A stretch of 64,000 nt of DNA from Dehalococcoidia bacterium. GTDB taxonomy: Bacteria > Chloroflexota > Dehalococcoidia > GIF9 > AB-539-J10. The DNA is taken from assembly GCA_003552125.1 (NCBI GenBank), contig PUON01000081.1:4417-68416 (forward strand), written 5' to 3'. The notes below the pieces were generated by a model, which searched no databases, was not told the origin of the DNA, and saw only the letters and a program-made list of their open reading frames with translations. Made by a program: the position numbers and the translations under genes. This document shows, in pieces, positions 8,050-64,000 of the stretch. Every line of letters begins with the position of its first letter. Position 1 is the first letter of the stretch.

Positions 8050-9291
8050 ATGCGAAACGGACGAAGAGTCGTGATCACGGGAGTTGGAGCACTCACGCCT
8101 CTTGGCATAGGGGTGAAAGACTCCTGGAATTGCCTTTGCGAGGGACGATCAGGCATCACGCCAATAACCCGTTTCGACGCATCAGGAATGGCCACACAAA
8201 TCGCGGGAGAGGTCAAAGGCTTCCATGCTACGGAGTTCATGCAGAACAAGGTCGCGCGGCGTTCAGACCTATTCGCTCAATATGCCATTGCAGCGACTGG
8301 AATGGCGCTGGAGGATTCGGGCCTCCGGATAGCGGGAGAGCTTTCCGAGCGCACCGGTGTGATATTGGGAAGCGTGGTGGGCGGCATCAGCACGCTCTGC
8401 TATAACATGCGTTCGCCAAGTGAGGGCAACATCGAGGGTGTCTCCAAGATGCTCGCATCGATGTATATGCCAAGTGCAGGGGCCAACGACATCAGCGTCG
8501 TCTTCGGAATTAAAGGCCCCAGTCGAGGTCTGAGCACAGCGTGCGCCACCGGAGGGCACTGTATCGGTGACGCAGTACGATTCATCCAGTACGGAGATGC
8601 GGATGTCATGATTGCGGGTGCATCAGAGGCGCAGATAGTCCCCATATTCATCGACAGCATTTCAAAGCTGCATGCGTCCTCAACCCGTAACGATGATCCG
8701 GAACGCGCCAGCCGACCGTTCGAGAAACACCGTGACGGCCTCGTGAACGGGGAAGGTGCGGGCGTACTCGTACTTGAATACCTTGAACATGCTCTTGCGC
8801 GCGGGGCACACATCTACGCCGAGATAGCGGGATTCGCGTCGAATATCGACGCGTACCATGCAGTTAAGCCGGAGTTTCAAAGCCAGGCCCGATGTATTAC
8901 TTTGGCCTTGCAGGATGGGCGTGTGGACTCGACAGAGGTACAGTACGTCAACGCGCACGGCACCGCAACCATACTGGGAGACCTGTCCGAGACAAGGGCA
9001 CTGAAGCTCGCTTTTGGAGACTCGGCGCGCCACCTCCTGGTGAGCTCCAACAAGTCCATGCTCGGGCACATGTGGAGTGCTTCGGGCGCCGTGCAGGCAA
9101 TCTTCACGGCCCTTACCCTTCAGAACGGAATCGTACCCCCCACGATCAACTACGAGACACCGGATCCGGACTGCGACCTTGACTATGTCCCTAACGTCAA
9201 GCGTAAGGTGGATGTGAGCGTCGCAATCTCCGAGTCATTCGGCTTCGGAGGGATGAATTCCGTGCTTGTGCTCAAACGTTTCGGCGGTTGA
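8050..9291 (+). CDS. fabF: beta-ketoacyl-ACP synthase II
   Basis: Full-length KAS II signature: active-site Cys (GPSRGLSTACATGGHC), His-His (NAHGTAT...LGHMWSASG) and C-terminal GFGGMNSVLVLKR. GAGGAG lies upstream. Confidence 0.9.
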   Translation: MRNGRRVVITGVGALTPLGIGVKDSWNCLCEGRSGITPITRFDASGMATQIAGEVKGFHATEFMQNKVARRSDLFAQYAIAATGMALEDSGLRIAGELSERTGVILGSVVGGISTLCYNMRSPSEGNIEGVSKMLASMYMPSAGANDISVVFGIKGPSRGLSTACATGGHCIGDAVRFIQYGDADVMIAGASEAQIVPIFIDSISKLHASSTRNDDPERASRPFEKHRDGLVNGEGAGVLVLEYLEHALARGAHIYAEIAGFASNIDAYHAVKPEFQSQARCITLALQDGRVDSTEVQYVNAHGTATILGDLSETRALKLAFGDSARHLLVSSNKSMLGHMWSASGAVQAIFTALTLQNGIVPPTINYETPDPDCDLDYVPNVKRKVDVSVAISESFGFGGMNSVLVLKRFGG

Positions 9292-21033: not shown

Positions 21034-22544
<1,511 letters not shown>

Positions 22545-22548
<4 letters not shown>

Positions 22549-42278: not shown

Positions 42279-43274
42279 ATGGAAGATAAGACAGGCGTAC
42301 TGGTGTACGGAGAACTGGCCGGAACGAAGCTTGCGGGCACCACCTGCGAGCTCCTGGAGTGCGGCAGGCGGCTGGCTGCAGATCTCGGACAGAGACTTGC
42401 CTGCGTTCTCGTCGGAGAAGTAAGCGACACCGCGGCCGCCGAAGCGGCCGCGCGAGGAGCAGCTACAGTGTACGTCGCCTCTATCCCGCAGGAATGCGCA
42501 TTCGATGGCGACGTCCATGTTGCCGCAGCCGCAGCGGCAGTCGCAACTGCAGAGCCTGGCATCGTACTACTGGGCCACACACCACTGGGTAGAGAGATAG
42601 GCCCACGACTCGCATTTCGCCTTGGGGCAGCAGTGAGCACCGACTGTATAGATCTGAGAATCGACCCGGATTCAGGTAAGCTGATCATGACGAAGCCAGT
42701 CTACGGCGGTAATGCGCTCCTCGATAGCGTTGCACAGACTGCACCACAACTGGCTACCGTACGGGCAAAGGCCATGCCCACTGGTGAACCCACCGCCGAA
42801 AACACACCAAACGTTGTGCACCTCAGCTTCGAAATGCCGACGACCAGGCTGACCATTACAGACCGCGTCCAGGAAGAGGTAGAAGGTGTCAAGCTTGAGG
42901 ATGCGCCAATCGTCGTCAGCGGTGGCAGAGGGGTGGGAGGCCCCGAACCGTTTACCACCATACTCCAGGATCTCGCGGCCGTACTGCACGGTGCCGTGGG
43001 AGCTTCACGTCCTGCCTGTGATAATGGCTGGGCGCCCGAGGCCATGCACATAGGCCTCACCGGGAAGATCGTTGCCCCTGACATCTACATTGCAGTCGCG
43101 ATTTCAGGCGCCAGTCAGCACATGTCCGGCTGTGCGGGCTCTAAGACAATCATTGCCATCAACAAGGACGCCGAAGCGAACATATTCCGCGAGGCTGCCT
43201 ATGGTGTAGTCGGTCGATACGAGGATGTCGTCCCCGCATTCACCGCCAGGCTTCGTGAGTTGCTCGCAGACTGA
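42279..43274 (+). CDS. etfA: electron transfer flavoprotein alpha subunit
   Basis: C-terminal FAD-binding region PDIYIAVAISGASQHMSGCAGSKTIIAINKD. Confidence 0.9.
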   Translation: MEDKTGVLVYGELAGTKLAGTTCELLECGRRLAADLGQRLACVLVGEVSDTAAAEAAARGAATVYVASIPQECAFDGDVHVAAAAAAVATAEPGIVLLGHTPLGREIGPRLAFRLGAAVSTDCIDLRIDPDSGKLIMTKPVYGGNALLDSVAQTAPQLATVRAKAMPTGEPTAENTPNVVHLSFEMPTTRLTITDRVQEEVEGVKLEDAPIVVSGGRGVGGPEPFTTILQDLAAVLHGAVGASRPACDNGWAPEAMHIGLTGKIVAPDIYIAVAISGASQHMSGCAGSKTIIAINKDAEANIFREAAYGVVGRYEDVVPAFTARLRELLAD

Positions 43275-49031: not shown

Positions 49032-50657
49032 CTACAAAGGAAGATGTACCTGACTCCCGGGTGGCACGGTGCGAACTGCCGCTTTCATGAACTCGCGAAA
49101 GAGAGGGTGTGGTTGATCAGGCCGCGACTTGAACTCCGGATGAAACTGGCAACCCAGCATCCATGTATGCTGCTTGAGTTCTGCTATCTCGACCAGGGCA
49201 CCATCTTCGGACACTCCGCTGAAGAAGAGGCGATGCTGCAGGAGTTGGCGGAAGTCATTGTTAAACTCAAAACGATGACGATGTCGTTCATGTACCAGCT
49301 CGCATCCATAGGCGGACGATGCCCGGGTGCCGGGAACCAGGCGACACGGATAGCTGCCCAATCTCATCGTGCCACCCATACGGTCAACGCTACGCTGGTC
49401 AGGCAGAAGATCGATCACAGGGTACTGCGTCGAAGGATCAAATTCGGTGGAGTTCACACATTCTGTTCCGAAAGTGGCACGTGCAATCTCTATCACGAGC
49501 ACCTGCATGCCGAGACACAATCCGAGGTACGGTATGTTATTTACCCTCGCGTATCTTGCCGCCTGAATCATCCCTTCAATGCCACGCATTCCGAAACCAC
49601 CGGGCACCACGATTCCCTGCGCGGCGGACAGCATCGCATCCACGTTTTCGGGCGTCAAATGATCAGACTGCACCCAGAAGATCTTGAGCTTGCGATTATG
49701 AAAGAGGGCAGCATGTTTCAGCGCTTCCCTTACCGAAAGATAGGTATCTTCCACTTCGACGTACTTGCCAACCAGCGCGATGGACACAACCTCTTCAGCT
49801 TCGCGCAATCGTGACACCAGATTGTGCCACACAGCGAGGTCACAGTCAGCGTCAGGAAGCCCAAGGCCTCTGGCAATCAGTCCGCCAACTCCGGCATCAG
49901 CCAATACCAATGGCACCTCATATATGCTCTCGACGGTGGGTAACGGGACCACAGCTTCAGCAGGCACATCACAGAACAGCCCTACTTTGTCACGCAACTC
50001 TTCGGGCATCGGAAGGTCACTTCTGCACACGATAATATCCGGCTGGATACCCATGCTCCGCAATTCACGGACACTGTGCTGGGTGGGCTTGGTCTTCAGT
50101 TCTCCGGTTGAGGCAAGGTGGGGAAGGTAGGTTACGTGAACGTACATGACGTTCTGTCTGCCGACATCCTTGCGAATCTGTCTGATAGCTTCGATGAACG
50201 GCTGCCCCTCGATATCTCCAACGGTGCCGCCGATTTCGGTAATCAGCACATCAGCCCCGAGGTTATTCGCACAACTGAGGACGAGTCTCTTGATCTCATC
50301 CGTAACATGTGGCACAACCTGGATCGTGCCACCCAAGAACCGGCCCTCTCGCTCCATGTTTATGACGGAGCTATATACACGACCTGACGTCGCATTAGCC
50401 TCGCACGACAGATCCACACCAATGAAGCGCTCGTAGTGACCAAGATCAAGGTCGGTCTCAGCACCATCCTCGGTTACGTACACCTCGCCGTGCTGATATG
50501 GAGACATGGTGCCAGGGTCGACATTCAAATACGGGTCGAGCTTCTGGACAGCAACGTTGACGCCGCGGGCTTTGAGGAGCGTGCCAATGGATGCGACGGT
50601 GATTCCTTTGCCAACTGAACTGACAACACCACCTGTAACAAAAATATGCTTAGCCAT
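49032..50657 (-). CDS. pyrG: CTP synthase
   Basis: MAKHIFVTGGVVSSVGKGI... and C-terminal class I GATase (GLCLGMQ, HRHR). TATAAT (complement of 50685-50690) lies upstream; the track ORF extends to 50795. Confidence 0.92.
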   Translation of the reverse strand: MAKHIFVTGGVVSSVGKGITVASIGTLLKARGVNVAVQKLDPYLNVDPGTMSPYQHGEVYVTEDGAETDLDLGHYERFIGVDLSCEANATSGRVYSSVINMEREGRFLGGTIQVVPHVTDEIKRLVLSCANNLGADVLITEIGGTVGDIEGQPFIEAIRQIRKDVGRQNVMYVHVTYLPHLASTGELKTKPTQHSVRELRSMGIQPDIIVCRSDLPMPEELRDKVGLFCDVPAEAVVPLPTVESIYEVPLVLADAGVGGLIARGLGLPDADCDLAVWHNLVSRLREAEEVVSIALVGKYVEVEDTYLSVREALKHAALFHNRKLKIFWVQSDHLTPENVDAMLSAAQGIVVPGGFGMRGIEGMIQAARYARVNNIPYLGLCLGMQVLVIEIARATFGTECVNSTEFDPSTQYPVIDLLPDQRSVDRMGGTMRLGSYPCRLVPGTRASSAYGCELVHERHRHRFEFNNDFRQLLQHRLFFSGVSEDGALVEIAELKQHTWMLGCQFHPEFKSRPDQPHPLFREFMKAAVRTVPPGSQVHLPL

Positions 50658-50858
50658 GCTTGTGGCGGAATACCGTCCGCCCGCATTATAGAAAGGTGTA
50701 TCTACGGGTGTCAACGACAGGCGTGAAATTGCCGCTAACGCGCTCATGCCACCGCATCTAACCGGCAATGCACACGCGCCTATATTGCCGTCCAATCACC
50801 GACAGCCAACCGCATCGGCGGTTCGAGTTGATCCTCTATAACTATACGCAGAGATCTC

Positions 50859-50887
50859 TTGACAGCGCTGTGTGCCGATGCTAGACT
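50859..50887 (+). promoter_or_regulatory. putative promoter of the glutamate-synthase-like gene cluster
   Basis: TTGACA-17 nt-TAGACT, 47 nt upstream of the ferredoxin gene start. Confidence 0.45.
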
Positions 50888-50933
50888 CATACGGCAACCG
50901 GTGGCCGGTCGCCGTTTTATTAGGAAGTGAGCT

Positions 50934-51401
50934 ATGAGACGGGTATTAGTGAAGGACGATCTCTGTATAGGATGTGGCTTATGCAGGGTATTCTGCGAGG
51001 CTCACCACGCGGGAAACGACGATCCGTTGAAGTCGCTCAAGCGCCGGCTTTCACCTCCCGCAGGTGGAATACGTGTGGAGTGCAACGGAATACGAAGCAT
51101 TTCTGTGCGGTGTCGCCATTGCGAGGACGCTCCATGTATTCAAGCCTGCCTGACAGGGGCGATGTACCGCGACTATGACAGCGGACTTGTGTTGATCGAT
51201 GCCGATCGCTGCGTCGGATGCGGAACATGCACCCTCGTGTGTCCATTCGGTGCAATACGCAAAGATGAACAGACCGGTATTGCCGTCAAGTGTGACGGTT
51301 GCCTTGATCGGGATATGCCCAGATGCGTCAATGCCTGTCCCAACGATGCACTCGTGATTGAGCTTAAGGCAGCTGTTTCAACGATCGCGACACCAGCCTG
51401 A
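50934..51401 (+). CDS. multi-cluster 4Fe-4S ferredoxin
   Basis: Four Cys clusters: CIGCGLCRVFC, CRHCEDAPCIQAC, CVGCGTCTLVCP and CDGCLDRDMPRCVNACP. AGGAAG lies upstream. Confidence 0.8.
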   Translation: MRRVLVKDDLCIGCGLCRVFCEAHHAGNDDPLKSLKRRLSPPAGGIRVECNGIRSISVRCRHCEDAPCIQACLTGAMYRDYDSGLVLIDADRCVGCGTCTLVCPFGAIRKDEQTGIAVKCDGCLDRDMPRCVNACPNDALVIELKAAVSTIATPA

Positions 51402-51450
51402 GACAGATACACGCAGTGTTTCGGAACTGACCGTGCAAGGAGGATACGGA

Positions 51451-53043
51451 GTGAACCTGAGACGTCCTAATGCGAACGATGCAACGCGCACCGCCAACCG
51501 GTCCCGCGATGTGGTTCCCGTGAGCGGTCTATGCTCCCGGTGTATTGACGGGTGTACCGGCAACTGCGAGGTATTCAAGGCGAGTTTTCGCGCACGGGAA
51601 CTCATCTACCCCGGTCCGTTCGGCGAAGTTACCGCAGGTGCCGACAAAGACTATCCGGTCGACTACTCCCACCTCAACATCCAGGGCTATGCGATGGGAG
51701 CGAAGGGGCTGCCCGAGGGTGTCGATGGCAACTCGGACACCGCAACATTCCCCGCGGTCAGCACGGAAACGAGTTACGGATGGAATTCCAAGGTAAGCAT
51801 GCGCGTCCCGGTGTTCACCGGAGCCCTGGGGTCAACGGAGATTGCGAGAAAGAACTGGGACCACTTCGCGGTGGGCGCAGCGTTGAGTGGTATCACTCTC
51901 GTATGTGGAGAGAACGTCTGCGGCATTGATCCCGAACTGGAGCTGGATTCATACGGTAAGGTTCGGAGTGCTCCAGACATGGACAGACGCATCGAGACGT
52001 ACAGGAAGTACCAGGACGGCTATGGCGAGATTCTGGTGCAGGTGAATGTTGAAGACGCACGGCTGGGTGCGGCGGAGTACGTATACGCCAAACATGGACT
52101 GGAAAGCATCGAGTTGAAGTGGGGTCAGGGTGCCAAATGCATCGGCGGCGAGATCAAGGTCAACTCGCTGGAACGCGCTCTGCAATTGCAGCGGAGAGGA
52201 TATATAGTGACACCTGACCCATCTGATCCGACGAGCCAATCGGCTTTTCGCAGCGGTGCACTGAAAGAGGTCGAACGCCACAGCCGGCTTGGGTTCATAG
52301 ACGAACATGCGTTCTTGCAGGCCGTGGAGAACCTGCGCGATATTGGGTTCAAGCGAATCACGCTTAAAACCGGTGCTTACAGCCTGAGGGAACTGGCAAT
52401 GGCGATTAAGTGGGGTGCGAAGGCACACCTGGACCTGATTACTATCGATGGTGCACCGGGTGGAACCGGCATGAGTCCATGGAGGATGATGGAGGAATGG
52501 GGCATACCGAGTCTCTATCTCCACTCCGCTGCATACGAGTTCTCCGAAAGACTGTCGGCCAGGGGAGAGCGCGTACCAGACCTTGCGCTCGCAGGTGGAT
52601 TCAGCAGCGAAGATGGAATCTTCAAGGCATTAGCGCTTGGTGCGCCCTACGTCAAGGCGATATGCATGGGCCGGGCGCTCATGATACCCGGCATGGTAGG
52701 CAAGAACATAGAGAAGTGGCTCAGCGACGGTAAGTTGCCAAACACCATCAGTCAGTACGGCTCAACGCCCGAGGAGATCTTCATATGCTACGAGGAAGTG
52801 AAACACCTGGTGGGGCCTGAAGAGATGAGCCATATCCCGCTGGGAGCTATCGGGATCTATAGTTACGTACAGAAGCTGAAAGTCGGCCTGCAGCAGATCA
52901 TGGCAGGCAACCGCAATTTCAACGTTTCAACCATAAGCAGCAGCGACCTCATGGCATTGACTGAAGAGGCGGCCAGAGTGACTGGAATTCCCTATGTAAT
53001 GGATGCATACCGCGAGGATGCACTTGCGATACTCGATGGTTAG
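51451..53043 (+). CDS. glutamate synthase FMN-binding-domain (GltB domain 2)-like protein, divergent paralog 1
   Basis: Retains GQGAK and IDGAPGGTGMSP (GxGGTG) of the GltS central domain but lacks the PGxGGxLPGxKV stretch and the 3Fe-4S Cys triad. It carries instead an N-terminal CSRCIDGCTGNCE motif. GTG start 6 nt after AAGGAGG; the track ORF begins at 51358 inside the ferredoxin gene. Confidence 0.7.
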   Translation: MNLRRPNANDATRTANRSRDVVPVSGLCSRCIDGCTGNCEVFKASFRARELIYPGPFGEVTAGADKDYPVDYSHLNIQGYAMGAKGLPEGVDGNSDTATFPAVSTETSYGWNSKVSMRVPVFTGALGSTEIARKNWDHFAVGAALSGITLVCGENVCGIDPELELDSYGKVRSAPDMDRRIETYRKYQDGYGEILVQVNVEDARLGAAEYVYAKHGLESIELKWGQGAKCIGGEIKVNSLERALQLQRRGYIVTPDPSDPTSQSAFRSGALKEVERHSRLGFIDEHAFLQAVENLRDIGFKRITLKTGAYSLRELAMAIKWGAKAHLDLITIDGAPGGTGMSPWRMMEEWGIPSLYLHSAAYEFSERLSARGERVPDLALAGGFSSEDGIFKALALGAPYVKAICMGRALMIPGMVGKNIEKWLSDGKLPNTISQYGSTPEEIFICYEEVKHLVGPEEMSHIPLGAIGIYSYVQKLKVGLQQIMAGNRNFNVSTISSSDLMALTEEAARVTGIPYVMDAYREDALAILDG

Positions 53044-53073
53044 CGGGAAGAGATCGGTGAAGGAGCTGGACAG

Positions 53074-53445
53074 ATGTATCAGTACAACTGGGGTCCGCAT
53101 TTCATGGCGTCAACCGACGCCGCCCGAGTTCTCTCCGGCAGGGTACAACTGAAGGAGGAAGTGGATGAGGGATTGCTGCGGCGCGAATTGGACTTGATGG
53201 GTCTCTCCGGGCCGATAACGCGCATCATGAATCAATGGTTCATTCGCAGAATAGGTGAGAACACATGGCGTCAGTTAGCGGCATCCGACGAAAGGCCTTC
53301 TGATTTCAGAGTTATCTGGGACTCGACATCGGTGGAGAATGGTGACTATGAAGTCCTGGAACAGATGAACGTCTTCGTCAAGACAGGCAGTGAGCAGCAG
53401 GTCATCACACGAACCAACACGGTTAAGGTTGCGGTCGCCAATTAA
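53074..53445 (+). CDS. hypothetical protein (123 aa) embedded in the cluster
   Basis: ORF with GAAGGAG upstream. No motif recognised. Confidence 0.45.
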   Translation: MYQYNWGPHFMASTDAARVLSGRVQLKEEVDEGLLRRELDLMGLSGPITRIMNQWFIRRIGENTWRQLAASDERPSDFRVIWDSTSVENGDYEVLEQMNVFVKTGSEQQVITRTNTVKVAVAN

Positions 53446-53458
53446 CGGGTGGAGCACT

Positions 53459-54106
53459 ATGGATACACGTACAGTGGCAGTGATCGACTACGGCGCGGGC
53501 AACCTGAGGAGCGTACGTTCGGCCCTCTGCAGTCTCGGCTACAATGCATTGATTGTTGACTCAGCGCGCGGAGCCGCGGAGGCCCAAGCGATGATCCTTC
53601 CTGGTGTCGGCGCTGCTGCTGACACCATGCACAACCTGGTACGGAGCGGACTGGCACAGACTGTAATTGACTGGATCGCAGCGGGTCGACCGTTCCTGGG
53701 TATCTGCATGGGGATGCAGATCCTGTTCGAGTATTCCGACGAGGGGGGCGGCCAAAAGTGTCTTGGCGTGTTTCCAGGCAGGGTCGTGAAACTCCCAACC
53801 TCGCACAAAGTGCCGCACATGGGTTGGAATCAGGTGCACTACCGAAGAGATTCGGCGCTCTTTGACGGCATACCGAACGACTCAAACTTCTATTTCATAC
53901 ACAGCTATGTTGTGGAGCCAGAAGACGACGAAATGATCAAAGCTACTACAGAATACTCAGCGCAGTTCTGCAGCGTCATCAATCGCGGGGCAGTAGTTGC
54001 CGCGCAGTTCCATCCGGAAAAGAGCGGTGCGGTTGGGATGCGTTTCTATGAGAACTTCCTGTCGCTCGCTGCAGAGGGACGCTTGCGCCACGGGATATCC
54101 ACATGA
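53459..54106 (+). CDS. hisH: imidazole glycerol phosphate synthase, glutaminase subunit (class I GATase)
   Basis: VAVIDYGAGNLRSV...GVG...GICMGMQ...HMGWNQV...FHPEKS are HisH-specific motifs. Confidence 0.85.
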   Translation: MDTRTVAVIDYGAGNLRSVRSALCSLGYNALIVDSARGAAEAQAMILPGVGAAADTMHNLVRSGLAQTVIDWIAAGRPFLGICMGMQILFEYSDEGGGQKCLGVFPGRVVKLPTSHKVPHMGWNQVHYRRDSALFDGIPNDSNFYFIHSYVVEPEDDEMIKATTEYSAQFCSVINRGAVVAAQFHPEKSGAVGMRFYENFLSLAAEGRLRHGIST

Positions 54107-55446
54107 ACACTTACGAATACGTTATTGTCGGCAATTCCGCCGGCGGCCTTTCGGCCGCGAGAGAAATCCGCACCATCGACCAGTCCGGCGGCCTGTTGAT
54201 ACTGTCGGACGAGCAGTACCCTGCGTACTCACGTCCACTGATCGCAAAGCATATCTCACATACGAAGACAATTGAGGCAATGGAACTGGTCCCAAGAGAA
54301 TTCTACGTGGACAGCCATATGGAATGGTGGCCCGGAACTCGTGCAGTTCGCATCGACTACCCAGAGAGGACGGTTCTGCTGCATGATGGACGTTGCGTCC
54401 ACTGGAACAGTCTGCTATTGGCCACTGGCAGCAGTCCCATCGTGCCGCCGATTGAGGGCGTAACAAGGCAGGGAGTCCACACTTTCACTACCTATTGCGA
54501 CGCCGAATCCATCACAAGACAACTGCCGTCAGTACGACATGTTGTCGTAATTGGAGGTGGGTTCATCGGACTCAGTGCGGCGGATGCACTGCGACACAGA
54601 GAAGTTGACGTGACCATCGTGGAGATGCAGTCCAGGGTACTCAGCACAATGGTCGATGAAGAGGGATCGACACGCATTGAGGAGGCAGTCCGCGCTTCAG
54701 GAGCGGATGTCATCACAGGCAGACGAGTGGTCTCCATAAATGGTGATCACCCGGAATCATCGTCAGTGTCAAGCGTGACACTTGATGACAGGACTCGGCT
54801 CCAGTGCGAAATGGTCATACTGGCCGTGGGCGTCAGGCCACGCACTGAACTTGCGGAAGGCGTCGTGCCCATGAAGCAAGGCATCCTTGTGGACGAATTC
54901 ATGCGAACCGCCACGCCGGGCATCTATGCTTGTGGCGATGTATGCCAGACTCGTGATTTCGCGAGAGATGCAGACGCCGTGCTTCCCGTCTGGCCAAACG
55001 CGGTCGCTGGCGGCGCTGTAGCTGGCGCCACCATGGCAGGAATGCCTCGCAGCTACGAAGGTTCTACCACAATGAATGCAGTGCCATACTTCGGTCTCAG
55101 CGTGGTCTCCGCGGGCGTCGTGGAACACGACCCGGCCCTACACGACGTGTTGACCAGGCGGGATTCGACCGGATACACAAAGGTAGTACTCAAGGAAGGT
55201 GTGATCGTCGGCATGGTGTCGGTCGGCGACACGTCCCGGTGCGGTATCGTTTATCACCTCATGAAGCGCAAGGCAAATGTGGATAACTGGAAAGACATGC
55301 TCGTGCGAGAGGACTTTGGCATTCTCTCACTCCCAGATTCGTTGTGGCGAGATCAACTGACCCCCCTGGACGGGCGGCTACGCGACGAGACGGACAACGT
55401 TGCGAATGGTATAGTGAACCTGACCACAGGCGCGAAGAGATGGTGA
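54103..55446 (+). CDS. FAD-dependent pyridine nucleotide-disulfide-family oxidoreductase (NAD(P)H:acceptor reductase)
   Basis: Two Rossmann GxGxxG motifs, VIVGNSAGGLSAA (FAD) and VVVIGGGFIGLSAADAL (NAD(P)H), plus the C-terminal dimerisation region. ATGA overlap with hisH. Confidence 0.75.
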   Translation: MNTYEYVIVGNSAGGLSAAREIRTIDQSGGLLILSDEQYPAYSRPLIAKHISHTKTIEAMELVPREFYVDSHMEWWPGTRAVRIDYPERTVLLHDGRCVHWNSLLLATGSSPIVPPIEGVTRQGVHTFTTYCDAESITRQLPSVRHVVVIGGGFIGLSAADALRHREVDVTIVEMQSRVLSTMVDEEGSTRIEEAVRASGADVITGRRVVSINGDHPESSSVSSVTLDDRTRLQCEMVILAVGVRPRTELAEGVVPMKQGILVDEFMRTATPGIYACGDVCQTRDFARDADAVLPVWPNAVAGGAVAGATMAGMPRSYEGSTTMNAVPYFGLSVVSAGVVEHDPALHDVLTRRDSTGYTKVVLKEGVIVGMVSVGDTSRCGIVYHLMKRKANVDNWKDMLVREDFGILSLPDSLWRDQLTPLDGRLRDETDNVANGIVNLTTGAKRW

Positions 55447-55449
55447 TCC

Positions 55450-56109
55450 ATGAAAGATGTGACGAGACTCAATAACAGGTACGGAGACGACAAGGTCTTT
55501 GATGGATGCTCGATCTTCGGAGTCATGGACACCTCAGGTGCTCCGATGCCTGCCAATATCGCAGTTCAGGCCATCGATCTCATGCGCGACAGGGACAACG
55601 GGCTCGGTGGTGGCTTCGCTGCTTACGGACTCTACCCGGAGCACCCCAACAAATACGCGATGCATGTCATGTACACCAGCCCGGATGGAAAGCGTCAGAC
55701 AGAGGCTTACCTCGAGCAATGGTTCGATATCGACGTTTCAGAGGCCATGGACACAGATCCAACCGTTATTCAGGACAGTCCTTTGATGCAACGCTACTTC
55801 GCATCCATTCGTCGTGAACAACAGGGATCCAGAGACGAAGCCCAGCGCGTGGCGGACATCACTATGTACGTGAACTCACATATCAGCGACGCATTCATTT
55901 TTTCCGCTGGCAAGAACATGGGTGTCTTCAAAGGCGTGGGGCACCCCTACGATATCGCGCGCTTCTTTAAGCTCGAACAGTACAGCGGCTATATATGGAC
56001 CGCGCACGGCCGCTTCCCGACCAACACCCCCGGATGGTGGGGCGGTGCACATCCATTCAGTCTGCTGGACTGGACCGTAGTACACAACGGTGAGATATCG
56101 TCCTACTGA
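55450..56109 (+). CDS. class II (Ntn) glutamine amidotransferase, N-terminal portion, ending at an in-frame TGA
   Basis: CSIFGV (putative nucleophile Cys20 after a 19-aa leader), RFPTNT and VVHNGEISSY-TGA. The same reading frame continues into 56152..56598. Confidence 0.6.
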   Translation: MKDVTRLNNRYGDDKVFDGCSIFGVMDTSGAPMPANIAVQAIDLMRDRDNGLGGGFAAYGLYPEHPNKYAMHVMYTSPDGKRQTEAYLEQWFDIDVSEAMDTDPTVIQDSPLMQRYFASIRREQQGSRDEAQRVADITMYVNSHISDAFIFSAGKNMGVFKGVGHPYDIARFFKLEQYSGYIWTAHGRFPTNTPGWWGGAHPFSLLDWTVVHNGEISSY

Positions 56110-56151
56110 ATCAACCGGCGAACTCTGGAACAATACGGATACGATTGTGCA

Positions 56152-56598
56152 TTGCAGACAGACACCGAGGTCGTTACCTATGCCATGGATCTGCTTGTGC
56201 GCCGGCACGCCCTCTCCGTCGAGACTGCTGCGAGAGTACTCGCGGCGCCGTTCTGGTCCGATGCACCCCGGATTCAACCTGAGGAAGCAAAGACGATGGA
56301 GGCACTGAGGATTACCTACGGCGGCTTGCTGCTCAATGGGCCCTTCACCGTCATCATCGCTAGAGAAGGGGAAATGATAGGTTTGACCGACAGGATTCGA
56401 CTTCGCCCCCTCGTGGTCGCCTCATCGGGACCACGGGTGTACCTGTCATCAGAGGAATCGGCTATCCGACTTGTCGATCCGGAGATCGATGAGGCATGGA
56501 TACCAGTTGGTGGCCATCCGGTCGTCGCACGACGTGGACACGTCCCGACCCTTGAGGAACAATGGCCCGCAAGCGAGGTGTCTTCCGTTGCTGACTAA
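56152..56598 (+). CDS. class II glutamine amidotransferase, C-terminal portion (same frame as 55450..56109)
   Basis: ...SETDTEVV-like block [14 protein letters not shown] and [11 protein letters not shown] (DRNGLRP motif). There is no SD before the TTG 56152; the two pieces make one domain split only by TGA 56107-56109. Confidence 0.5.
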
Positions 56599-57355
56599 GC
56601 GCATCATAGCTTGCCTCGACGTGAAAGACGGACGTGTCGTCAAGGGAACCAGCTTCGAGTCGCTACGCGACTCCGGCGATCCCGTCGAGCTTGCGCGCCG
56701 CTACTACTTCGAGGGTGCAGACGAACTGGTATTTCTCGACATCACCGCCAGCAAGGAGCATCGAGCCACCATGGCCGCACTGGTGGAGCGTGTCGCTGAC
56801 GCCGTGTTCATACCGCTCACTGTTGGTGGCGGACTGAACTCGGTTGAGGACATGCGGCGACTGCTTCTCTGTGGTGCAGACAAGATCTCGTTGAACACAG
56901 CGGCAGTCAAACAACCCGAGCTTATCAGTCGAGCAGCGGAGCGCTTCGGTAGCCAGTGCGTAGTTGTCGCTATTGACGCCAAGCGCGTGCCAGAACATGA
57001 GCCGTACAGATGGCTGGTACACACGTACGGCGGGAGTGTCGCAACTTCACTCGACGCAGTACAATGGGCCGCTCAGGTAGCAGAGCTTGGTGCGGGGGAG
57101 ATATTGTTGACCAGTATGGACGCAGATGGACACCGCGCCGGATACGACATCGAACTGACGAGAGTGGTTGCCACCTCAGTTCCAATTCCGGTTATCGCAA
57201 GTGGCGGCGCTGGGTCACCGGAGGATCTCCACCGTGCGCTGACCGATGGCAAAGCTGATGCCGTGCTCGCAGCCAGTATTTTTCACTACAGCGAGTTCGC
57301 GATTACACAGACGAAGGAATACCTGCACCACAAAGGCCTGAGTATCAGGCGATAG
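56588..57355 (+). CDS. hisF: imidazole glycerol phosphate synthase, cyclase subunit
   Basis: [39 protein letters not shown]...IPLTVGGG...ASGGAGS forms the HisF (beta/alpha)8 signature. TTG start 9 nt after GCGAGG, overlapping the amidotransferase 3' end. Confidence 0.85.
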
Positions 57356-57364
57356 GGTAGTGAC

Positions 57365-58867
57365 ATGAAGAGTTTCCTGCCGCCCAGGTTCATAGTTGAC
57401 CGCGATCCATCGCGCTGTATCCAGTGCAAGGTTTGCGTTAACCAGTGCAGCTTCGGAGTTCAGAGCTTCGATGAAGACGAACAGGCCCTTAAGTCACGTG
57501 AACAGAACTGCGTTGGATGCCACAGGTGCGTTGCGTTCTGCCCCACAAACGCCCTCATCATACGTCGCAATCCGCTTGATTACCGTGCAAATTTCAACTG
57601 GCGACCGGAGGTTATCGAGGACATCCTGAAGCAGGCCGAGAGCGGTGGCATGCTGCTGACGGGAATGGGCGACGACAAGAACCACACAATCTACTGGGAC
57701 CACCTGCTGCTTAACGCCAGCCAGGTAACCAATCCCTCCATCGATCCTTTGCGTGAACCTATGGAGCTCACGACCTTTCTCGGAAGAAAGCCCGACCGTC
57801 TTCAGTTCGATGAGCGTGGAAACCTGATCACCGTAATGGCGCCTCAGGTGAAGCTGGAGACACCAATTATGTTTGCCGCCATGTCCTACGGCGCAGTCAG
57901 TCTCAACGTCCATACTTCACTTGCTCGGGCTGCAACAGAGCTTGGAACACTTTGGAACACGGGAGAGGGCGGACTGCACCCCACACTCGCACGCTATGCG
58001 CCAAATACAGTTGTACAGGTGGCCTCAGGGCGTTACGGCGTGGATACTGACTACCTACGCAAGGCCCGTATCATCGAGATCAAGATAGGACAGGGTGCCA
58101 AACCTGGTATCGGTGGCCATCTCCCTGGAGAAAAAGTAACCGATGACGTCTCCCGAACACGAATGATTCCCAGCGGGACTGACGCAATCTCGCCGGCGCC
58201 TCATCACGACATCTACTCGATAGAAGACTTGCGCCAATTGATCTATGCGATTAAGGAAGCGACCAATTACGAGAAGCCGGTTTCGGTGAAGGTTGCTGCC
58301 GTGCACAACGTGGCAGCAATCGCCAGCGGGATGGTACGTGCGGGAGCAGATATGATCGTCGTTGACGGGTTGCGCGGGGCCACCGGCGCCGCACCGAAGG
58401 CTATTCGGGACAATGTCGGTATTCCTATCGAGCTCGCGCTCGCATCGGTTGACACCCGCCTGCGACAGGAAGGGATCCGCAATCAGGCTTCTGTCGTAGC
58501 TTCAGGTGGACTCCGTTGCAGTGGCGACGTCGCCAAGGCCATAGCCCTCGGTGCAGACGCGGTCTATATCGGCACCGCTGCGCTTATCGCCCTCGGCTGC
58601 CACGTGTGTCAGCAGTGTCACACAGGAAAGTGCAGTTGGGGCATATGCACCAGTGATCCGGCTCTCACGAAGCGTATCAACCCTGAAATAGGGGCACAAA
58701 GACTTGTGAATCTCGTCAGAGGCTGGAGCCTTGAGATCAAAGATATGCTGGGAGGCATGGGGGTTAACGCAGTTGAGAGTCTCAGAGGGAACCGGCTCCA
58801 TCTCAGGGGAGTGGGTTTGAGCGATACCGAACTGGACGTTCTTGGCGTAAAGATGGCGGGCGGCTGA
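57365..58867 (+). CDS. ferredoxin-fused glutamate synthase FMN-domain (GltB domain 2) protein, paralog 2
   Basis: N-terminal 2x[4Fe-4S] (CIQCKVCVNQC, CVGCHRCVAFCP). Canonical IEIKIGQGAKPGIGGHLPGEKV and VDGLRGATGAAP. Cys cluster CHVCQQCHTGKC is like the GltS 3Fe-4S site. Confidence 0.85.
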   Translation: MKSFLPPRFIVDRDPSRCIQCKVCVNQCSFGVQSFDEDEQALKSREQNCVGCHRCVAFCPTNALIIRRNPLDYRANFNWRPEVIEDILKQAESGGMLLTGMGDDKNHTIYWDHLLLNASQVTNPSIDPLREPMELTTFLGRKPDRLQFDERGNLITVMAPQVKLETPIMFAAMSYGAVSLNVHTSLARAATELGTLWNTGEGGLHPTLARYAPNTVVQVASGRYGVDTDYLRKARIIEIKIGQGAKPGIGGHLPGEKVTDDVSRTRMIPSGTDAISPAPHHDIYSIEDLRQLIYAIKEATNYEKPVSVKVAAVHNVAAIASGMVRAGADMIVVDGLRGATGAAPKAIRDNVGIPIELALASVDTRLRQEGIRNQASVVASGGLRCSGDVAKAIALGADAVYIGTAALIALGCHVCQQCHTGKCSWGICTSDPALTKRINPEIGAQRLVNLVRGWSLEIKDMLGGMGVNAVESLRGNRLHLRGVGLSDTELDVLGVKMAGG

Positions 58868-58898
58868 TATCAGGCTTCGTGAAACTGGAGACACAGCG

Positions 58899-59633
58899 AT
58901 GGAAATCAACGCACGTTTCATGAGCTACCGCGACCTGAACGCAGCCCTGAATCAGGCTGTCGATGCTGGCACAACGCACATCACCGTGCAGAACGTCAAC
59001 GGACAACGTTACATAGGAACAAACCTTCATGGTCGTGTAACAGTGGAACTCCATGGAACACCAGGCAACGACCTTGCTGCATTCATGAATGGGCCAGCGA
59101 TCATTGTGCGCGGTAACGGACAGGACGGCGGTGGCAACACTATGAATGGCGGCGAAATAGTGATCCACGGCCACGCGGGCGATGCGCTGGGCCTCGCGGC
59201 ACGGGGTGGCAGTATACTGGTTCGCGATGATGCCGGGTACCGGGCAGGCATCCACATGAAAGAATATCAGGGGCGTGGCGCGCTCGTTGTGATCGGTGGG
59301 GGCGCGCAGGACTTCCTGGGAGAATACATGGCTGGTGGCACACTGATCGTGTTAGGATTGTCACAGCGGGGCGCCGGGTGGTCACACACCAGATTTGTCG
59401 GAACGGGGATGCATGGAGGTGCGATTTACCTGCGCGGACGCATTGACAGTCACCAGATTGGGAAGGAAGTAGGCATAGCCCCTCCTGATGACAGAGATAC
59501 GCGAATCATCCAGGAAGCAGTCGCGAAATACTCGGAACACTTCGGCACCGACCCCAAGCGAATACTTGATGCCGAGTTCGTTAAGCTGTTTCCGCTGTAT
59601 CTGCGTCCCTACGGTCGATTGTATGCCTATTAA
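58899..59633 (+). CDS. glutamate synthase C-terminal GXGXG-domain protein (GltB domain 3 / FwdC-like)
   Basis: Repeated Gly-rich beta-helix motifs (GNGQDGGGNTMNGGEIVIHG, GGGAQDFLGEYMAGGTLIVLG). GGAG lies upstream. Confidence 0.85.
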   Translation: MEINARFMSYRDLNAALNQAVDAGTTHITVQNVNGQRYIGTNLHGRVTVELHGTPGNDLAAFMNGPAIIVRGNGQDGGGNTMNGGEIVIHGHAGDALGLAARGGSILVRDDAGYRAGIHMKEYQGRGALVVIGGGAQDFLGEYMAGGTLIVLGLSQRGAGWSHTRFVGTGMHGGAIYLRGRIDSHQIGKEVGIAPPDDRDTRIIQEAVAKYSEHFGTDPKRILDAEFVKLFPLYLRPYGRLYAY

Positions 59634-59645
59634 CCAGAGCAAGTC

Positions 59646-60317
59646 GTGAGCTACAAACCGATTACGCACCTGGCACTGATACGTCCTGAACCACCGCCCT
59701 TCCCCGACTGCTACCGTGAATTGACCGAACTAGGTGCGGAGGTGCGTGAAGCACTCATCGGCGGGATTATCGAACACTGTCTAATACCCTCTCCCGCCGC
59801 CATAGTCCTGATGGCGGATTCGGCCGACCATCTTCACAAGGTTCCACCAATCATCAAGGCACTGACGGCCAGCCCTGTTCTTGCGCTCATCACTCCCGAG
59901 TTGCTTCACGCCACCTGGCCAACGGTCGGTGTGGAGGACTTCATGGTCGGCACAGGATCAGGCTCGGAGTTACGGGCACGAGCTATCCATCTGATGCGGC
60001 TACACCCGGAGAGTCGCCACCTGATCCGGCATGGAGACCTTGCTATAGATACGGCATCCTGCGAAGTGAGCGTGGGTGGACGGCTCATCGAACTCACCTT
60101 CAAGGAATACGAACTGCTGAAATTCCTGGCACACGAACCTGGCCGCGTCTTCTCACGACAGGTACTGCTGGACAGAGTATGGGGTTACGATTACTTCGGC
60201 GGCGACCGCACCGTGGATGTTCACATTCGCCGCCTTCGAAGCAAGCTTGAGGATGCAAATCATACTTTCATTGATACGGTCCGCAATATAGGGTACCGTC
60301 TGCATAGGGATAAGTGA
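59646..60317 (+). CDS. OmpR-family winged-helix transcriptional regulator with degenerate receiver-like N-terminus
   Basis: The C-terminus LTFKEYELLKFLAHEPGRVFSRQVLLDRVWGYDYFGGDRTVDVHIRRLRSKL...IDTVRNIGYRL is OmpR/PhoB-type. The N-terminal half lacks a clear DD...D...K phospho-acceptor set. GTG start 12 nt after the GXGXG gene. Confidence 0.6.
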   Translation: MSYKPITHLALIRPEPPPFPDCYRELTELGAEVREALIGGIIEHCLIPSPAAIVLMADSADHLHKVPPIIKALTASPVLALITPELLHATWPTVGVEDFMVGTGSGSELRARAIHLMRLHPESRHLIRHGDLAIDTASCEVSVGGRLIELTFKEYELLKFLAHEPGRVFSRQVLLDRVWGYDYFGGDRTVDVHIRRLRSKLEDANHTFIDTVRNIGYRLHRDK

Positions 60318-60488
60318 GCGACCCGTTCCATTCCGGCTGCATACGAGTGCGTCCGATGTCTGCAGTTGGACTCTGACAGTGCTCATCGCCGGGCAGATTG
60401 TATCCGCCACGTGTGATATTATTGCGCTCGACTCATGCCCAATGGCATGCAGTACTGGTATCCGGCTCAGATTGTGCTGGAGGATTTA

Positions 60489-62063: not shown

Positions 62064-63407
62064 ATGGCCAAGAGAACCCGGGATGAAGCAAAGGAGTATG
62101 TGCTCAAGACAGCCAAGGAGCACGATGTCAAATTCATCAGACTCTGGTTCACGGATATACTCGGTCTTCTCAAGAGCTTCGCAATCACCGTTGAGGAGCT
62201 TGAGGGCGCTCTCGAAGACGGCATGGGATTTGATGGATCTTCAATCGAGGGCTTCTGTCGAATCGACGAGAGCGACATGATGGCACTGCCTGATCCCGAG
62301 ACCTTCCAGCTACTGCCGTGGCGACCCAAGGATCATCACTCGGTGGCCAGGATGTTCTGCGACGTGATGCGGCCCGAAGGAACGCCATTCGAGGGAGATC
62401 CCCGGTACGTGCTGAAGCGGAACCTGCAGAAAGCAGCAGACCTCGGATACACCTTCTACGTGGGTCCCGAACTGGAGTATTTCTACTTCAAGGATAAGTT
62501 TGGGACTGAGCCGCTGGACGAGGGCGGGTACTTCGACATGACGCCACTCGACCTGGCCACTGACCTGAGAAGGGAAACCGTGTTGACTCTCGAGGCAATG
62601 GGTATAGGTATCGAGTATTCACACCACGAGGTGGCTCCCAGCCAACACGAGATCGACATGCGATACACAGACGCGCTTACCATGGCTGATAACGTCATGA
62701 CTTATCGGCTGGTGGTGAAGCAGATCGCCCTGGACCGTGGCGTCCACGCTACATTCATGCCGAAGCCTGTGTTCGGCATGAATGGCAGCGGCATGCACAC
62801 GCACCAGTCCCTCTTCAAGAACGGACACAACGCGTTCTTTGATCCGAACGGACAGTACCATCTCTCGGATGCAGCGCGCTGCTACATCGCCGGCTTGCTC
62901 AAACACGCGCCTGAGTTCACGTCGATCACCAACCAGCTGGTGAACTCTTACAAGCGACTCGTACCAGGATATGAGGCACCGGTCTACCTTTCCTGGGCCC
63001 GTCGCAACCGTTCGGACCTGATCAGGGTGCCGGGCTACAAGCCAGGCAGAGAGGCTTCCACACGCGTAGAATTGCGCTCCCCCGATCCCACATGCAACCC
63101 GTACCTCGCGTTCTCGGTCATGTTGGCGGCCGGTCTGGAGGGCATCGAGAAGGGCTACGATTGTCCGGAGCCCGTCGAGGAAAACGTCTACGTTATGCCT
63201 GAGGAGGAGCGAATCGCACGCGGCATAGGGACATTGCCATCAACTCTGTATGAGGCGGTCAAACTCACCCGGGAGAGCGAGGTTGTTCGCAAAGCCTTGG
63301 GGGATCACGTGTTCAATTCGTTCGTACAGAACAAACTCATCGAGTGGGATAGCTACCGAACGCAGGTAACAGGGTACGAGCTTAATCGCTATCTACCGGT
63401 GTACTGA
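62064..63407 (+). CDS. glnA: glutamine synthetase, type I
   Basis: FTDILGLLKSF, GSSIEGF, and the ATP/glutamate-binding region PKPVFGMNGSGMHTHQS. AAGGAGG upstream. Confidence 0.92.
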   Translation: MAKRTRDEAKEYVLKTAKEHDVKFIRLWFTDILGLLKSFAITVEELEGALEDGMGFDGSSIEGFCRIDESDMMALPDPETFQLLPWRPKDHHSVARMFCDVMRPEGTPFEGDPRYVLKRNLQKAADLGYTFYVGPELEYFYFKDKFGTEPLDEGGYFDMTPLDLATDLRRETVLTLEAMGIGIEYSHHEVAPSQHEIDMRYTDALTMADNVMTYRLVVKQIALDRGVHATFMPKPVFGMNGSGMHTHQSLFKNGHNAFFDPNGQYHLSDAARCYIAGLLKHAPEFTSITNQLVNSYKRLVPGYEAPVYLSWARRNRSDLIRVPGYKPGREASTRVELRSPDPTCNPYLAFSVMLAAGLEGIEKGYDCPEPVEENVYVMPEEERIARGIGTLPSTLYEAVKLTRESEVVRKALGDHVFNSFVQNKLIEWDSYRTQVTGYELNRYLPVY

Positions 63408-63498: not shown

Positions 63499-64000
63499 TC
63501 ACACCCAGCCGCGCAGTCTCATGACTTCTACCACTCGCTCTACTGCTCGCACGTAGGCAGCCTGACGCATGTTGATGCCGTACTCACGACTCGTATTCAC
63601 AACCGAATGATATGCGGCAGTCATCTTCTTATCCAGACGCTCATGCACATCAGCCTCAGTCCACGGGTACAGGTAGAAGTTCTGCACCATTTCGAAGTAG
63701 GACACGGTAACGCCACCTGCATTGCACAGGAAGTCCGGGATCACATGCACGCCATTCTCATACAGGATGTCGTCAGCCTCTGGAGTAGTCGGCCCGTTGG
63801 CGAGTTCTGCCACGATCTTCGCGCGAACCTTTCGGGCATTGCGAGACGTAATGACACCCTCTATCGCTGCGGGAATGAGCACGTCGACATCCATTTCAAG
63901 CAGGTCGTCCCCAGAAATGAGCTCAGTGTCGGGAACTCCGCACACCGTGCTGGTGGACAGTTTGCACTCGCGTGCAGCTTCAGGATCGATGCCATCAGCA
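63499..64000 (-). CDS. gdhA: Glu/Leu/Phe/Val-family glutamate dehydrogenase, C-terminal part (5' end beyond window)
   Basis: ANGPTTPEAD...GVHVIPDFLCNAGGVTVSYFEMVQN is the GDH NAD(P)-binding-domain signature. Stop at 63499-63501. Confidence 0.8.
   Translation of the reverse strand, partial: ADGIDPEAARECKLSTSTVCGVPDTELISGDDLLEMDVDVLIPAAIEGVITSRNARKVRAKIVAELANGPTTPEADDILYENGVHVIPDFLCNAGGVTVSYFEMVQNFYLYPWTEADVHERLDKKMTAAYHSVVNTSREYGINMRQAAYVRAVERVVEVMRLRGWV

Follow-up and report, generated by a model that had tools for sequence, protein, structure and literature searches.

The closest described relatives of the gene studied here are the amidotransferase domains of the GltS alpha subunit and of Fd-GltS (1ofe, 1ea0 and 6s6s). 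These domains belong to the GATase_2 family and have a propeptide ahead of a Cys nucleophile, an HNG motif and an (S/T)DTE motif, all of which are shared by the complete reading frame of the gene described below. The roles of the Cys nucleophile and of the Asn-Gly oxyanion hole are taken here to be those established from PurF, GlmS and GltS. Whereas the GltS amidotransferase is one domain of a ~1,500-residue protein, the present one is a separate 382-residue polypeptide, clustered with genes for FMN-synthase and GXGXG subunits, and it resembles the archaeal-type stand-alone form that carries the JGI name "glutamate synthase domain-containing protein 1". GltS also has no break like the one reported here, a stop codon in place of Gly220.

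In-frame stops have been described in two other settings. Ordinary internal-stop pseudogenes and segregating null alleles in bacterial genomes and MAGs have a single-base stop in a gene that is otherwise intact and conserved; relatives keep the sense codon and there is no recoding signal. The same is seen here and nothing sets this case apart: it is an ordinary nonsense change, or else an error in the consensus sequence of a MAG. Bacterial selenoprotein genes such as fdhF have a UGA followed immediately by a SECIS element, and the in-frame UGA is the sole likeness to them. At the present locus the homologous residue is Gly rather than Cys, no hairpin follows, the UGA is unconserved, and no other change accompanies it relative to alleles that have GGA.

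The gene lies in a 64-kb stretch of DNA, referred to as the window, that very probably comes from the MAG "Dehalococcoidia bacterium B1Sed10_135" (PUON00000000). This MAG comprises 2.09 Mb in 175 contigs at 10.7x coverage, with a GC content of 57.6% and one 16S gene (Vavourakis et al. 2018, PMC6146748). T3Sed10_181 (PWZS) and CSSed11_172 (PWTB) are sister Dehalococcoidia MAGs of group GIF9 (PMC6146748, Supplementary file 4). The source MAG is also counted with GIF9. The reads, 150-bp pairs from Illumina HiSeq, came from hypersaline soda-lake sediments in Siberia at pH 10 and were assembled with MEGAHIT (PMC6146748). A complete 16S rRNA gene stands alone in the window at 21035-22545 on the minus strand; no 23S or 5S gene is found within the 64 kb, which suggests that the rRNA genes are unlinked. 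The features that bear on the interrupted gene are as follows.

53459..54106, plus strand: hisH-like amidotransferase of class I, with which the conserved cluster opens
54103..55446, plus strand: Pyr_redox_2 NAD(P)H/FAD oxidoreductase, presumed electron-input subunit; its TGA ends 4 nt before the GATase start
55450-56598, plus strand: class II (Ntn) glutamine amidotransferase (GATase) gene, 382 codons, interrupted by an in-frame TGA
55450..56109, plus strand: N-terminal ORF of 219 codons, from ATG 55450 to the premature TGA
56107..56109, plus strand: premature stop TGA; GGA (Gly220) in both sister assemblies
56110..56598, plus strand: in-frame remainder of the GATase gene, 162 codons plus TAA 56596-56598, with QTDTEV (D238) and the second half of the Ntn fold
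56621..57355, plus strand: hisF-like gene, directly downstream of the interrupted gene
57365..58867, plus strand: glutamate synthase FMN subunit with an N-terminal 2x[4Fe-4S] domain, intact (PF01645, 467 bits)
58899..59633, plus strand: GXGXG subunit, like the GltS C-terminal domain (PF01493 domain match), intact
62064..63407, plus strand: type I glutamine synthetase glnA (TIGR00653, 540 bits, above cut-off)
63499..64000, minus strand: glutamate dehydrogenase, C-terminal part, running off the window (GdhA_Arch, E = 8e-61 on the partial product)

The translation that continues through the TGA matches Pfam GATase_2, GATase_6 and GATase_7, with 39.9 bits against a cut-off of 19.9 for GATase_2 (PF00310), and all homologs carry precomputed matches to PF00310, PF13522 and PF13537. 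Its predicted structure displays a four-layer Ntn fold like that of the GltS amidotransferase domain, on a model of moderate confidence (mean pLDDT 67, pTM 0.70) in which residues 189-237 score below 50 and from which no residue-level claims are drawn. The top Foldseek matches are the GltS chains 1ofe_A, 6s6s_A and 7mfm_G (query-normalised TM-score 0.63-0.65, E ~1e-13, best 7e-14), followed by PurF and GlmS, and the HNG motif aligns with the HNG of both of these enzymes. The GltS-like fold matches and the conserved gene cluster together identify the gene, as a sequence-based prediction, as the glutaminase subunit of an archaeal-type split glutamate synthase (GOGAT). No second copy of the GATase gene is present within the 64-kb window.

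A first-pass annotation of this DNA had reported a single in-frame TGA in a class II amidotransferase, with both flanks in one frame. Both statements hold: the TGA at 56107-56109 interrupts 382 codons that are homologous to one family, and 56152 lies 702 nt from 55450. By sequence comparison, the homology of the two flanks to a single protein family (E = 3e-261) is well past chance. The 219-codon N-terminal ORF carries a 19-residue propeptide, the nucleophile Cys20 and the HNG oxyanion motif (N213-G214). The TGA follows six codons past this motif and 18 codons ahead of D238 in QTDTEV, and alignments to PurF (6lbp) and GlmS (1xff) span the site with no gap, in agreement with the earlier description of a stop within a contiguous conserved block. 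The aspartate of (S/T)DTE is thus not on the same polypeptide as the nucleophile, since D238 is encoded past the TGA and is absent from the 219-residue product; the residue is present in the sister alleles P0001 and P0125. The remainder, 56110..56598, is without a credible start of its own, as had also been noted. The first in-frame start after the stop is TTG 56152, with no Shine-Dalgarno-like sequence upstream, and the second is ATG 56185, with GAGG 14 nt upstream; both lie near or past the QTDTE block. A promoter and terminator scan of 55300-56800 gave nothing above shuffle expectation.

The neighbouring genes are those expected of a predicted split glutamate synthase, with separate genes for the GATase, the FMN-synthase subunit (PF01645) and the GXGXG subunit (PF01493) plus a reductase. 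An identical FMN subunit protein is encoded in two sister MAGs. The gene order hisH, Pyr_redox_2, GATase_2, hisF, FMN subunit, GXGXG subunit and regulator, sometimes followed by glnA (53459-60317 in the window), recurs in many Dehalococcoidia-type loci, including L004, L025, L042, L051, L076, L088, L124, L165, L193 and L221. Directly after the GATase gene stands hisF in 45 of 235 loci and the FMN gene in 106.

Several other features of the region deserve description. The GOGAT cluster, glutamine synthetase and glutamate dehydrogenase place all three ammonium-assimilation enzymes within 10 kb. Upstream, at 50934-53043 on the plus strand, a second, divergent glutamate-synthase-like FMN protein of 536-561 residues gives a weak PF01645 match and is 28% identical to the true FMN subunit; a 4Fe-4S ferredoxin-like gene precedes it. 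A 123-codon ORF at 53074-53445 (plus strand), between the GltB-like gene and hisH, has no Pfam or NCBIfam match, and its position is kept in several related loci. Between the GOGAT cluster and gatB/glnA lies a gene for an OmpR/PhoB-family regulator (59646-60317, plus strand). Family models match its C-terminal winged-helix part only (residues ~94-220), the receiver domain looks degenerate from its sequence, and the protein may be a GlnR-like orphan nitrogen regulator.

Two sister assemblies establish the polarity of the change. The read-through product differs from the 382-residue protein P0001 at the stop alone and is otherwise 100% identical to it; P0001 has Gly220, and its gene lies on Logan contig SRR490150_22389 (locus L001). 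By its run number, SRR490150 may be one of the 2012 SRA0520xx submissions from the soda-lake study. Over window positions 50078-58837 (8,760 bp) L001 is 99.92% identical, with seven mismatches and no gaps: five synonymous differences, one Arg to Ser change in the upstream GltB-like gene, and GGA in L001 against TGA in the window at 56107. The second sister, L242 (PWZS01000135, from MAG T3Sed10_181), is 99.39% identical to window positions 53885-60322 and also has GGA at the site. The window, L001 and L242 belong to the same species-level population, and L001 and L242 were assembled independently. With GGA in both of these nearest relatives, the TGA is a one-step G to T transversion at 56107.

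The sister sequences also show how the rest of the window has diverged. The window lineage has nine substitutions of its own: five synonymous changes, one stop-to-stop change (TGA to TAA), two missense changes in the GXGXG gene, and the nonsense change itself. Synonymous alleles private to the window include 55065 T, 57748 T, 57769 C and 58255 G. Random single-base changes in the GATase gene would be synonymous in 23% (0.233) and nonsense in 3.9% (0.039) of cases. Silent changes make up six of the nine against the 23% expected, which shows the window to be a genuine sister lineage filtered by selection and not sequence full of errors. Besides the TGA, no lineage-specific change is present in the GATase gene, so the event, if real, would be very young. 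Exact look-ups of the hisF and Pyr_redox products returned L001 only, and those of gatB, dnaK and the Ser503 variant of the upstream GltB-like protein gave no match.

The sister loci have peculiarities of their own. L242, from a MAG with 4.4x coverage, has a separate GGA to TGA change in hisH codon 207 (window-equivalent 54077) that trims nine codons and falls in a cluster of differences at 54044-54077, and its GATase has Glu at the otherwise invariant Gly307 (window-equivalent 56369). L243 (PWTB01000016) has a 1-bp deletion at the hisF stop (window-equivalent 57355), relative to the window, L001 and L242; its hisF is called at 255 rather than 244 residues.

Homologs of the read-through product number in the thousands; the best 120, from Dehalococcoidia and other Chloroflexota, are single polypeptides of ~357-402 residues, mostly 382. 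Position 220 is Gly in every member of an alignment of 21 orthologs (58-100% identical). In a second alignment, of 30 sequences, Gly220 is present in 29 of 29 aligned full-length orthologs, and C20, N213 and G214 are invariant across all 30. The comparison with orthologs that had been proposed as a check on the stop therefore returns a sense Gly at this column, never Cys or Sec. Searches with the back-translated motif HNGEISSY-TGA-IN found nothing in 241 million metagenome records or in genomes representing 185,579 species, while the positive control, HNGEISSY-NNN-IN, was found at 120 or more loci in each of the two collections. Among the matches listed for the control motif, all 240 loci have GGN at the codon (115 GGC, 51 GGG, 49 GGA and 25 GGT). 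The stop thus stands where glycine is otherwise invariant, and this sequence is the only one to have it.

The first-pass annotation had left three options for the TGA: pseudogenisation, an assembly or sequencing error, or programmed recoding. The former two are supported by the present data, whereas recoding is effectively refuted. Recoding, by selenocysteine, efficient read-through or a suppressor tRNA, would yield a full-length active enzyme; the halves do share a frame and are both intact, and a UGA with A after it is a rather leaky stop in bacteria, which makes trace read-through possible. However, the homologous residue is Gly in every ortholog examined, the motif contains TGA at no other genome or metagenome contig scanned, and insertion by tRNA-Trp would place Trp at an invariant Gly. 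Past the stop, the first difference from either GGA-bearing sister is at 56284, 177 nt downstream; the 176 nt between are identical, indicating that no co-evolved RNA element accompanies the TGA. The weak stem pointed out earlier is present at ~56130-56148 and is not exceptional against shuffled sequence. Compared with dinucleotide shuffles, the downstream RNA gave minimum free energy z-scores of +0.75, -1.08, -1.13 and -0.48, with 13-78% of shuffles folding equally well or better, and hence no stable hairpin. The 64-kb window contains no tRNA-Sec, although tRNA-Leu and tRNA-Glu were found, and an Rfam scan, from a database that may not hold bacterial SECIS models, returned the 16S rRNA and these two tRNAs and no recoding element. 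Selenocysteine was rejected on the invariant Gly, the lack of TGA in orthologs, the missing hairpin and the identical downstream sequence of GGA alleles, and recoding in any form is highly improbable. Just as improbable is a functional split gene, whose two pieces would be made separately and reassemble into an active amidotransferase. The family already occurs as separate domain-sized glutamate synthase subunits, but the break lies within the most conserved block, orthologs are all ~382 residues with none split here, and a downstream piece started at TTG 56152, which has no ribosome-binding site, or at ATG 56185 would lose residues 221-234 or 221-245. An independent downstream gene was rejected on the same grounds. 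An alternative code has in its favour that the expected residue, Gly, is the table 25 assignment of UGA (Trp in table 4). It is contradicted by stop-codon usage, which excludes both tables: more ORFs of the window end in TGA than in either of the other stops (27 of 58 crude ORFs), among them complete gltX, coaBC, coaX and hrcA as well as fabF (8050-9291) and etfA (42279-43274), which end in TGA after complete domain architectures, as the first-pass annotation had argued against a reassigned code. The neighbouring Pyr_redox_2, hisH and FMN-subunit genes also end in TGA, the sisters use GGA at the site, and the organism belongs to Dehalococcoidia rather than to Gracilibacteria or SR1, leaving a reassigned UGA exceedingly improbable. 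Even jointly, the recoding, split-gene and alternative-code readings are very unlikely.

The reading that we favour, with a probability of roughly 0.7, is a young GGA to TGA nonsense allele, a real null variant in the sampled population. We infer that the T was present in cells rather than in the assembly only. Scaling the six silent changes by the opportunity ratio 0.039/0.233 gives an estimate of about one nonsense mutation in the ~8-kb region over the divergence time, before selection, and catching one segregating null allele would then be unsurprising. The competing reading is an assembly or sequencing artefact, in which the cells carry GGA. Thin coverage at this spot, read errors multiplied by duplication, or a k-mer path from a minority or foreign sequence would then have brought the T into the MEGAHIT consensus. 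The source MAG has a mean coverage of only ~10.7x, possibly lower locally, and both sister assemblies have GGA. The 219-residue product on record (P0124) comes from the NCBI contig only, and no second assembly with the T allele turned up in an exact-product look-up of this fragment. Outside the stop the gene is fully intact, the residue is invariant and the gene is strongly conserved in all relatives, which suits an artefact but equally a very recent mutation. Similar oddities occur in the lower-coverage sister MAG T3Sed10_181, namely the hisH stop and the Glu at Gly307. Glutamate synthase, moreover, is usually central to nitrogen assimilation, and a fixed null allele would be costly. Against an artefact, the other window-specific differences are mostly synonymous and look like real variation, same-frame stops split none of the other conserved genes in the 64-kb window, and the sequence context of 56107 is neither a homopolymer nor a repeat. 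By default MEGAHIT drops k-mers seen once, which should keep a lone read error out of a contig, and isolated read errors seldom get through de Bruijn assemblers that require a k-mer multiplicity of at least 2. An artefact is on these grounds possible but unlikely.

If the nonsense allele is real, its consequences may be outlined as follows. A G to T transversion in this lineage would have turned the GGA of the invariant Gly220 into TGA, and with UGA read as an ordinary stop, translation would end after 219 residues. The released fragment would keep the Cys20 nucleophile and the Asn-Gly oxyanion hole; lacking the glutamine-binding aspartate of QTDTE and the second half of the alpha-beta-beta-alpha sandwich, it should be inactive as a glutaminase. 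Premature termination may also lower expression of the downstream hisF and synthase genes. The null allele may nonetheless be tolerated: with glutamine synthetase and glutamate dehydrogenase genes nearby, glutamate could still be made via glutamate dehydrogenase, especially in an ammonia-rich setting at pH 10, perhaps with free NH3 contributing.

For annotation, the gene is best flagged as an internal-stop pseudogene, or given its GGA back should the reads show one; neither a selenoprotein nor a pair of genes should be recorded. Unless the reads have been checked, glutamine-dependent GOGAT activity should not be taken for granted in metabolic reconstructions of this MAG. Past such annotation hygiene the significance is small. 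A stronger proposal, which seems unlikely at present, is that the TGA is a real null allele, fixed or at high frequency among the Bitter-1 cells, and that the GOGAT glutaminase subunit is dispensable at pH 10, where ammonia is largely un-ionised. In that case free NH3 would feed the FMN and GXGXG subunits, or glutamate dehydrogenase would take over, and the locus would capture an early step in the environment-driven loss of glutamine-dependent glutamate synthesis in haloalkaliphilic Dehalococcoidia. An allele that is both real and frequent would thus hint, weakly, that cells in high-pH sediments rich in ammonia can do without the GOGAT glutaminase.
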